DNA from: Oscillospiraceae bacterium
Lineage (GTDB): Bacteria > Bacillota > Clostridia > Oscillospirales > Oscillospiraceae
Length of the DNA stretch: 64,000 nucleotides
Assembly: GCA_045596005.1 (NCBI GenBank)
Contig: JAZOBQ010000016.1
Span: 1,783-65,782 of the forward strand
Reading direction: 5' to 3'
The notes below the pieces were generated by a model. That model had not been told where the DNA came from. It saw only the letters and a list, made by a program, of their open reading frames with translations, and ran no database searches. Positions 39,056 through 39,843 of the stretch are shown here, in pieces. Numbering within the stretch: position 1 is the stretch's first letter; each line of letters starts with the position of its first letter. The translations under genes and the position numbers were made by a program.

Positions 39056-39406
39056 TCAGCAGCCGAGGCTGTGCAGAGCCTTGGAGATGGAGCGGGTTAC
39101 GAGATAGGCGGCGAGGAAGGAGGCCAGACCGACACCGGCGATCTTGGCGGCGGCGATCAGAATGGCGGTGGTGACAGCGAAACCGCCGCTGACATCGTCG
39201 AGATCCTCCTCGCTGAGCTCGTCGTTTTTGCCCTCGACGACCTTTGCGATCTCTTCCATGAAGGTCTTGGTTTCATCGAGACTCAGCTCGAGTCCGTTTG
39301 CGTTGAGCTTTTCCTGCATTTCCACCAGAGTTTCGGAGCTGAACAGATCTTTTACGAATGCCTCGTCGTTAAACAGCTTTTCTACTTTTTCATTGAAGTT
39401 GGTCAT
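39056..39406 (-). CDS. precursor peptide P3: Nif11-like leader, double-glycine site, 41-aa core ending in Cys
   Basis: ORF 39056..39472 trimmed to ATG 39406 (GGAGG 9 nt upstream), giving 116 aa. Leader '..NDEAFVKDLFSSETLVEMQEKLNANGLELSLDET..NDELSEEDLDDVSGG'. Core FAVTTAILIAAAKIAGVGLASFLAAYLVTRSISKALHSLGC. Confidence 0.85.
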   Translation of the reverse strand: MTNFNEKVEKLFNDEAFVKDLFSSETLVEMQEKLNANGLELSLDETKTFMEEIAKVVEGKNDELSEEDLDDVSGGFAVTTAILIAAAKIAGVGLASFLAAYLVTRSISKALHSLGC

Positions 39407-39423
39407 TTTTCTATACCTCCTGA

Positions 39424-39759
39424 TTAATCTCTGCGGGGATCTTTGCAGGCTTTTTTCTTGCCGTCGTGCCATCCGGCTTTCGCACCGGCAATGGCGCTTA
39501 CAACGATGAGAGTTCCGAAAATGAGTATCATTCCGTTGAAGCCGCCGGAGACGGAATCGAGTTCGTCTTCGCCGAGTTCACCGCCGGCGTTGTTGATCAT
39601 TTCGCCGAGCTTTTCGATCTCTTCTATGCTGAACTCGAGACCCTTGGCTGCGAAGGCTTTCTGAGCTTCCTCGGCGGTGGTGATCTCCGCGAGAGCGGCA
39701 ACGAATTCTTTATCTGCAAATGCGTCTTCTGCGAGTTTCTTGAGCTGATCAATATTCAT
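39424..39759 (-). CDS. precursor peptide P4: Nif11-like leader, double-glycine site, 38-aa core with one Cys
   Basis: 111 aa. Leader 'MNIDQLKKLAEDAFADKEFVAALAEITTAEEAQKAFAAKGLEFSIEEI..GEDELDSVSGG'. Core FNGMILIFGTLIVVSAIAGAKAGWHDGKKKACKDPRRD. GGAGG RBS upstream. Confidence 0.85.
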   Translation of the reverse strand: MNIDQLKKLAEDAFADKEFVAALAEITTAEEAQKAFAAKGLEFSIEEIEKLGEMINNAGGELGEDELDSVSGGFNGMILIFGTLIVVSAIAGAKAGWHDGKKKACKDPRRD

Positions 39760-39814
39760 GTTTTGTTCCTCCGATTTATTGAAGTTGTTTTTTCCTTAAT
39801 GTGTTTACGTCTAT

Positions 39815-39843
39815 ATATACACAGCTCCTTTTCAGTCGTTACA
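39815..39843 (-). promoter_or_regulatory. island promoter motif copy B (TGTAAC-N15-GTGTATAT)
   Basis: The minus strand reads TGTAAC GACTGAAAAGGAGCT GTGTATAT, about 55 nt upstream of the P4 ATG (39759). Confidence 0.5.

Follow-up and report, generated by a model that had tools for sequence, protein, structure and literature searches.

P4 and P3, a probable satellite precursor operon for a membrane-active peptide pair in a Nif11/NHLP-type island of a gut Oscillospiraceae bacterium

The P4/P3 unit

We analyzed a 64,000-nucleotide stretch of DNA (the window) from contig JAZOBQ010000016.1 of the Oscillospiraceae bacterium assembly GCA_045596005.1, in which two adjacent genes of the minus strand, P4 (39424-39759, 111 amino acids) and P3 (39056-39406, 116 amino acids), encode small peptide precursors. 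They probably make up a satellite operon of precursor genes belonging to a bacteriocin island of the NHLP/Nif11 type and yield a pair of membrane-active peptides. This reading is carried by long leaders ending in Gly-Gly, by short cationic cores of class II type, by the recurrence of the pair in other lineages, and by a rare promoter motif shared with the other precursor genes of the genome.

P4 and P3 are real genes, which confirms the earlier observation. Each ATG is preceded by a GGAGG sequence, 9 nt upstream in the case of P4, and 17 nt separate the two genes. The start methionine of P3 is equivalent to that of its orthologues, which are 115 amino acids long. An open reading frame (ORF) of 138 amino acids from 39472 was rejected as a gene; it lies in another frame and overlaps P4. 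Near-identical strains in four gut metagenomes carried six within-species variants in P4 and P3, five of them synonymous and one a leader substitution; four of the synonymous changes fell in P4 together with the single amino-acid change, A29T, in its leader. With five synonymous variants against one non-synonymous, the two genes look to be under purifying selection. The locus was present in gut metagenomes, several of them labelled sheep or goat, and the host is an uncultured Oscillospiraceae bacterium of the ruminant gut, whose RecA shows 96% identity to proteins recorded under that name.

From promoter to terminator the unit holds only P4 and P3 and no enzyme gene. The initial annotation of this DNA had given the same gene layout and coordinates, with an end at 39843 that coincides with the end of the promoter motif, and had reported neither a modifying enzyme nor a small immunity-like gene with the pair; all of this was borne out.

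Leaders

The leader of P4 (39541-39759, minus strand) comprises 73 amino acids and ends ELGEDELDSVSGG, and that of P3 (39182-39406, minus strand) comprises 75 and ends NDELSEEDLDDVSGG. The leaders of P2 and P1, two precursors encoded by a sister operon of the same window, are 71 and 74 amino acids long. Both the P4 and the P3 leader terminate in the arrangement L(X)4L..V-S-G-G (LSEEDL and LGEDEL, respectively, then V-S-G-G), with hydrophobic residues at positions -4, -7, and -12 from the Gly-Gly, and their last 15 residues match the double-glycine consensus.

The initial annotation had proposed Nif11-like leaders of 71-75 amino acids and a search with the corresponding model, TIGR03798, whose curated cut-off is 32.3 bits. 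P4 matched this model at 30.1 bits (E = 4.3e-7), just below the cut-off, and P3 at 15.3 bits (E = 0.018); P2 reached 30.2 bits and P1, with 33.6 bits, passed. With phmmer E values of 2e-11 to 4e-7, P3 is nevertheless a clear homologue of the other three precursors, and 48 of 51 relatives matched TIGR03798 at E <= 1e-3. When profiles of the P3 type and of the P4 type were compared with the PDB, the best match was 9zn4, a 77-residue Nif11 leader that aligned over the whole leader up to the Gly-Gly (E = 8e-4 with the P4-type profile). The lengths, the matches of the relatives, and the nature of the best PDB match uphold the proposed assignment.

The AlphaFold2 model of P3 places four helices in residues 2-58, with mean predicted local distance difference test (pLDDT) values of 74-93 over 10-residue blocks, and leaves the segment before the Gly-Gly poorly defined. 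A cyanobacterial Nif11 leader has been described as a tetrahelical bundle with a flexible L(X)4L tail (bioRxiv 10.64898/2026.10.04.756588), and the predicted P3 leader is consistent with that structure. A Foldseek search of the P3 model against the PDB (library to April 2026) gave no match, probably because the 9zn4 entry is newer than the library. Taken together, P4 and P3 are almost certainly Nif11-leader double-glycine precursors.

Cores and tail cysteines

The core of P4 (39427-39540, minus strand) has 38 amino acids, FNGMILIFGTLIVVSAIAGAKAGWHDGKKKACKDPRRD, with a mass of about 4086 Da and a net charge of +4; that of P3 (39059-39181, minus strand) has 41 amino acids, FAVTTAILIAAAKIAGVGLASFLAAYLVTRSISKALHSLGC, with a mass of about 4091 Da and a net charge of +3. 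On re-reading, the core strings quoted in the initial annotation proved correct, and so did their cationic character. Each core combines a hydrophobic stretch of membrane-span length with a basic tail. P4 contains two tandem true GxxxG motifs (GAKAG and GWHDG, forming G19xxxG23xxxG27), which its orthologue keeps. A strict GxxxG is absent from P3, and its eight small-xxx-small spacings are expected, and of low specificity, in a sequence rich in Ala and Gly. The initial annotation had pointed out small-xxx-small motifs in all four cores.

Against TIGR03949, the model of the class IIb bacteriocins of the lactobin A/cerein 7B family (curated cut-off 21.5 bits), P3 scored 19.5 bits, P4 15.0 bits, and P1 21.7 bits, P1 alone passing. 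The same model was matched by 22 of 51 relatives at E <= 1e-3. The near-threshold score of P3 and the passing score of P1 agree with the class IIb-like character first suggested for the cores. Sequence searches of the PDB found no relatives of the P3 or P4 core.

As originally described, P3 and P4 contain exactly one Cys each, and P1 and P2 are free of Cys. This residue is the last one of P3 and lies within the KKKAC of P4, which ends RRD. In each of the three orthologous pairs (see below), both partners have kept their one tail Cys. Two divergent adjacent pairs, L057 and L056, were picked since one member ended in Cys, so that the neighbour constituted the test; the neighbour bore a Cys in both. 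The Cys falls within the last three residues of both members, ..GGWLHGRAKSTRRCSH then ..YRLGKMRGC in L057 and ..SAAKGKC then ..NSIGGSCR in L056. Among 144 parsable cores from 150 representative relatives (P0002-P0151), a single tail Cys occurred in 13 and a terminal Cys in 5. The co-occurrence of tail Cys residues in pairs is suggestive though not decisive. We know of no characterized class IIb pair in which a conserved tail Cys in each partner is a feature. An actual disulfide link between P4 and P3 appears rather improbable. A PapB-like Cys-to-Asp thioether in the ACKD of P4 was also considered and discarded, the Asp not being conserved in the orthologue.

Conservation of the pair

With a profile built from the four precursors of the window, 739 representative proteins were retrieved at E <= 1e-10 and a total of 3,364 when the limit was set at E <= 1e-3; nearly all have about 100 amino acids and the same build. 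By these matches the family appears large and already covered by NCBIfam TIGR03798 and TIGR03949; no experimental paper on it was found in the literature. Its cores end in Trp in 100 of the 144 parsable cases, usually after Arg or Lys and typically as ..T(R/N)(R/G)RW, and P3 and P4 belong to the minority that lacks the terminal Trp.

All four core types of the window have their own orthologues in other genomes. The P3 type was found in three lineages among 5.8 billion protein clusters, namely the window, L025/26 (P0152), and L024 (P0007). The P3-type gene of L025/26 starts 12 nt after a P4-type gene (P0138), and that of L024, on a contig of 504 bp, is preceded by the last codons ..SGKKNACN, a P4-type tail. 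The recurrence of the P4-type then P3-type order in both lineages supports a specific pairing. Over the three lineages 30 of the 41 positions of the P3 core are invariant, and the leaders are roughly one-third identical; in the recurring pairs generally, conservation is far stronger in the cores than in the leaders. A core more conserved than its leader, the reverse of the usual pattern in peptides that are made on ribosomes and modified after translation (RiPPs), points to a constrained mature peptide.

Orthologues of this type were not easily reached. A word-indexed protein search with P3 alone returned P3 only, and the orthologues needed a profile search followed by a P3-type profile. No P3-type orthologue was found in 400 genomes of the same order; a scan of genome contigs turned up a single general-family locus, in Subdoligranulum, and no P3 or P4 type, and a scan of metagenome contigs with leader patterns gave general family members only.

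The initial annotation had called the P4/P3 pair paralogous to P2/P1. The leaders of P1 to P4 are indeed homologous, all alignments among them being highly significant (z of 11-20), but the P2-P1 leaders align as well as the P4-P2 leaders. In composition-preserving shuffles the P3 and P1 cores were marginally similar (z = 2.6, p = 0.02) and the P4 and P2 cores were not (z = 0.9, p = 0.18). Duplication of the whole P2/P1 pair is therefore not supported by the core statistics, and paralogy of the two pairs as pairs has partial support only. The gene order common to both, in which a type with a GKK tail leads and one of the AVT..AAK..G.G kind follows, is real and comes up again in other genomes; even so, the four precursor types diverged long ago.

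The sister pair is itself conserved. A membrane ORF of 52-61 amino acids, then P2-type, P1-type, and radical S-adenosylmethionine (SAM) enzyme genes, recurs in L027/28, L033, and L034/35; this cassette, whose enzyme has 332-338 amino acids, is conserved across four lineages or more. The P1-type cores share the near-invariant ending ..AGLAIYKWYKSR, and P2-type cores end ..EVNKxRKxKGKKxIW. Elsewhere in the family, at locus L019 (G037:C3:70000-89000), the cores of two among the five precursors are polar and not of the membrane type (MVQPTMPMQYDFGKQMPMVASNVGTIQPTW).

Promoter, terminators, and sigma factor

The initial annotation had given the P4/P3 unit its own promoter and terminator, and both were located. 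A promoter-like motif of the extracytoplasmic function (ECF) type, TGTAAC-N15-GTGTATA, lies at 39816-39843 on the minus strand, 56 nt before the ATG of P4, its -35-like element spanning 39838-39843 and its -10-like element 39816-39822. Its hexamers resemble the Bacillus SigX/SigW type of ECF promoter (TGTAAC or TGAAAC, then CGTA). On both strands of the 1.9-Mb genome the exact motif occurs three times, where 0.04 copies are expected from base composition, and all three copies are upstream of precursor operons. One precedes P4/P3. A second, at 17803-17830, is 57 nt 5′ of the ATG of the membrane ORF that heads the sister operon (15847-17830, minus strand), and the third, at C150:25896-25923, precedes a solitary fifth Nif11-leader precursor on another contig (C150:25422-25838, minus strand).

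The motif was free of variants across the four metagenomes. An exact copy stands directly 5′ of the P4-type gene in L025/26, which belongs to a much more AT-rich organism, and near-matches, with small changes in the last bases, precede homologous arrays in L027/28, L029, L050, and G037 (L019). In G037, a gene for an ECF sigma factor 33% identical to that of the window ends at the motif, which is followed by five precursor genes and a radical SAM gene. The ECF-type sigma-70 factor of the window (27728-28273, minus strand; TIGR02937, E = 1e-30) is encoded at the head of the export operon. Because motif and ECF sigma gene co-occur, we infer that these promoters depend on the sigma factor, which makes it the candidate regulator of the TGTAAC-N15-GTGTATA promoters.

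Two terminators delimit the unit. Downstream, at 38985-39038 (minus strand), a 17-bp stem (about -30 kcal/mol for the centroid, z = -5.6) with a U-rich tail ends P4/P3 transcription and does the same for a kinase gene that converges on it (36780-38969, plus strand). Upstream, the carboxylesterase gene (39932-41260, Pfam COesterase) has its own intrinsic terminator at 39860-39913 (minus strand; 18-bp stem, -32.5 kcal/mol, z = -7.2, U8), which shields the P4/P3 promoter from esterase read-through. An automatic scan for promoters and terminators detected neither the promoter nor the terminator of the unit, because the former is not of the sigma-70 type and the terminator loop has 10 nt.

The window strain differs from the metagenomes at two nearby positions: 39013, in the terminator loop region, is T in all covering metagenome contigs, and 39844, which adjoins the -35-like hexamer, is C in the three runs with contigs there. 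Another copy of the motif, with two mismatches (TGTAAC-N15-GTGTAAT), was noticed at 28287-28314 on the plus strand, directed away from the sigma gene and toward the block of kinase, vWA, and LRR genes. This copy falls inside the 5′ extension of the sigma ORF when a GTG start is used, and the gene therefore probably starts at an internal Met near 28273 and not at the GTG.

Export and the accessory island

The P4/P3 pair is the outermost unit of an accessory island of about 24 kb. The island contains an export cassette (21763-27735), 12-17 kb from the pair, whose three genes, all on the minus strand, score above their curated cut-offs: an NHLP-type ATP-binding cassette (ABC) exporter with an N-terminal C39 peptidase (24732-26906; 935.9 bits with TIGR03796, whose cut-off is 853.3), a second ABC subunit (21763-24714; TIGR03797, 731.4 against 709.4), and an HlyD-like secretion protein (26899-27735; TIGR03794, 171.6 against 156.2). 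A PF03412 search of the organism's own assembly, at 70% completeness, matched the C39 domain of the exporter and no other. This leaves the exporter as the sole candidate for the cleavage of P3 and P4, and export with Gly-Gly cleavage by it is very likely. A close TIGR03796 homologue accompanies the precursors in every relative that carries them, and three of these four homologues exceed the curated cut-off. The pair had been called stand-alone. This holds for transcription, since it has its own unit, but the unit sits at the edge of the island and relies on its only C39 exporter and probably on its ECF sigma factor; P4/P3 is transcriptionally separate yet functionally dependent on the island.

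The locus first noticed in the island (15.8-28.4 kb, minus strand) encodes the ECF sigma factor, the NHLP cassette, STAS, TIR-FHA, LRR, and PP2C proteins, the membrane ORF, P2, P1, and a radical SAM enzyme. Its sister operon consists of the 52-amino-acid membrane ORF (17587-17745), P2 (17261-17581), P1 (16908-17225), and a radical SAM/SPASM enzyme (15847-16845), all on the minus strand. Ser/Thr kinases and PP2C, vWA, and LRR proteins are the products of the 10 kb that separate this locus from P3. Precursors and exporter are absent from all eight genomes of the same genus; where the esterase gene was found, it had no precursors 3′ of it, on contigs too fragmented to show an empty site. This absence argues for an accessory competition trait, with the pair as the outer edge of the island.

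Several observations concern the surroundings of such loci. The solitary precursor on C150 has a Cys-rich core (GFFKGTLRLAVSCGVAFGYGCFCGICPAAAAG...YVKKGW) and adjoins a MacB/FtsX-type ABC transporter, an ATPase, and an HlyD-like gene, a neighbourhood that might provide immunity. On L025:1262-1977 (Logan SRR32129108), the orthologous pair is followed directly by an acidic ORF of 66 amino acids with a leader-like ..DELSLFDLDLVSAA, beyond which come a STAS gene and the beginning of one for a TIR-domain protein; the association of these peptides with STAS and TIR in the window island is thus conserved. L030:8364-20342 (bioreactor metagenome ERZ922529) contains STAS, a HATPase_c_2 anti-sigma-type kinase, eight tandem precursors, a radical SAM gene, and an export cassette, and so has a classical partner-switching kinase, which the window does not. 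In L019 the place where HlyD is usually found, flanked by the second ABC subunit and the ECF sigma factor, is taken by a DUF7005 protein.

Alternative explanations

Several results weigh against a membrane-active peptide pair. P3 and P4 each remain under the curated cut-off with TIGR03798 as well as with TIGR03949, and the core part of the P3 model is of low confidence (pLDDT about 50-60). No small membrane-protein ORF lies within the P4/P3 unit, no membrane-protein ORF lies 3′ of the orthologous pair of L025, and no immunity-like gene was found in or beside either; for a membrane peptide toxic to its producer, such an absence is unusual. None of the RNA sequencing runs searched carried the P4/P3 locus, so that expression was not seen. 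A disulfide between the tails would be disfavoured in the reducing gut lumen. Moreover, related organisms have arrays of 2-8 different precursors, so that adjacency alone is no proof of synergy. Finally, a radical SAM gene orthologous to that of the island lies directly 3′ of four of the related arrays examined, including those of G037 (where the enzyme is 45% identical to that of the window), L027/28, and L034, and the array of L030/31 is followed by a different, larger one (636 amino acids in L030); the mature peptides may therefore be modified, and an unmodified state cannot be assumed.

The arrays bear directly on the possibility that P3 and P4 are independent single-peptide bacteriocins, or parts of a diversified cocktail, co-transcribed merely through the build-up of tandem genes. 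Homologous loci with 2, 3, 4, 5, or 8 different tandem precursors, the solitary precursor of C150 under the same promoter, and the other core types that follow P4-like genes in L029 and L032 are what such a history would produce. However, the P4-type then P3-type order was seen in every lineage with either type, both partners retain the single tail Cys, and the P2-type then P1-type pair is invariant in four lineages, which suggests that fixed pairs are the functional units; we regard independent action as unlikely. A little less probable still is that P3 and P4 are modified RiPPs, substrates in trans of the island radical SAM/SPASM enzyme, the one candidate for such a modification, by way of the common Nif11-like leader. 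It is documented that long Nif11 leaders serve modifying enzymes as recognition modules, all four leaders of the window are homologous, and orthologues of the enzyme accompany the related arrays just mentioned. Yet the enzyme always adjoins the P2/P1-type cassette or arrays of Trp-ending cores, whereas P3 and P4 have no terminal Trp and P3 no Trp at all, and neither the P4/P3 unit nor the 2-kb orthologous contig of L025 holds an enzyme gene.

The surroundings of the pair also allow a role other than that of a weapon, in which the peptides would be exported signals or membrane modulators feeding the Ser/Thr-kinase, PP2C, STAS, and TIR-FHA genes of the island. The pair abuts the block of kinase, PP2C, vWA, and LRR genes, and STAS and TIR genes directly follow the pair in L025. 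Cores of 38-41 amino acids with a full hydrophobic span and a basic tail, however, look like pore-forming bacteriocins and unlike the double-glycine pheromones known so far, peptides of lesser length and amphiphilic character, and the class IIb model is matched by the 22 of 51 family members noted above; we hold a signalling function to be very improbable. The membrane-active peptide pair remains the preferred interpretation. For its parts, an antimicrobial role of the peptides is likely, and an obligate two-peptide action is a tentative proposal, a little short of evenly balanced.

Discussion

The preferred interpretation suggests the following mechanism. The ECF sigma factor of the island would transcribe both genes from TGTAAC-N15-GTGTATA to the strong terminator. 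In each precursor the Nif11-like leader, a predicted helical bundle with a flexible L(X)4L..V-S-G-G tail, would hold the peptide inactive and target it to the C39 ABC exporter, which would work with its partner ABC subunit and the HlyD-like protein. Cleavage after Gly-Gly would take place during export, as judged from the family, and would release peptides of about 4.09 kDa with charges of +4 and +3, each having one hydrophobic membrane-spanning segment and a basic tail. The peptides would then insert into competitor membranes, most likely jointly as a helix-helix pair in the class IIb manner, to which P4 could contribute its GxxxGxxxG face and P3 a small-xxx-small face, and the single tail Cys of each partner may tether them by a disulfide.

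In its most specific form, the proposal is that of a disulfide-tethered P4-P3 heterodimer, made from Nif11 leaders without a modifying enzyme and switched by an ECF sigma factor in a Ser/Thr-kinase/PP2C/STAS/TIR-FHA island. We consider this combination improbable; if true, the heterodimer would set apart, among the long-leader class II bacteriocins of gut Clostridia, a distinct "tail-Cys pair" subclass. The tail Cys of each partner in any case gives a simple testable hypothesis. The conserved promoter motif offers a handle on dispersed precursor genes that are overlooked by cluster-based mining, the ECF sigma factor is a possible switch for silent loci of this kind, and the two short, synthesizable peptides are possible narrow-spectrum antimicrobials from the ruminant gut.

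The closest known systems are the N11P/NHLP precursors (Haft, Basu and Mitchell 2010, PMC2887384). These share with P4/P3 the Nif11-like leader of about 70 amino acids with a double-glycine site, the presence in one genome of several precursor paralogues whose cores are unrelated, with some of the genes lying away from the transporter, and the three-gene export cassette (TIGR03794/03796/03797), which here exceeds all cut-offs. The characterized N11P are, however, mostly cyanobacterial, with Cys/Ser/Thr-rich cores modified by LanM, cyclodehydratases, and other enzymes, whereas P4 and P3 have hydrophobic class-II-like cores, no accompanying enzyme, a gut Firmicute as host, and an ECF-type promoter. 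The prochlorosins likewise combine scattered precursor genes with one processing and export locus, and a shared Nif11 leader with differing cores, but they are lanthipeptides made by ProcM, and there is no LanM here.

On the side of the cores, the class IIb bacteriocins (lactobin A/cerein 7B, lactococcin G, plantaricin EF/JK; PMC2850506) resemble P4/P3 in their adjacent co-transcribed genes, their C39 double-glycine processing, and their cationic hydrophobic peptides of 30-40 amino acids, to which GxxxG (in P4) and the near-threshold match to TIGR03949 can be added. They differ in having leaders of 15-30 amino acids, compared with 73-75 amino acids and a folded bundle in P4/P3; in addition, the P4/P3 operon has no immunity gene and its exporter is of the two-ABC NHLP type. 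P4 and P3 are thus new, rare representatives of the known Nif11-leader/NHLP precursors with class IIb-like cores, and they indicate that gut Clostridia pair long folded leaders of the Nif11 type, best known from the modified peptides of cyanobacteria, with plain class-II-like cores.

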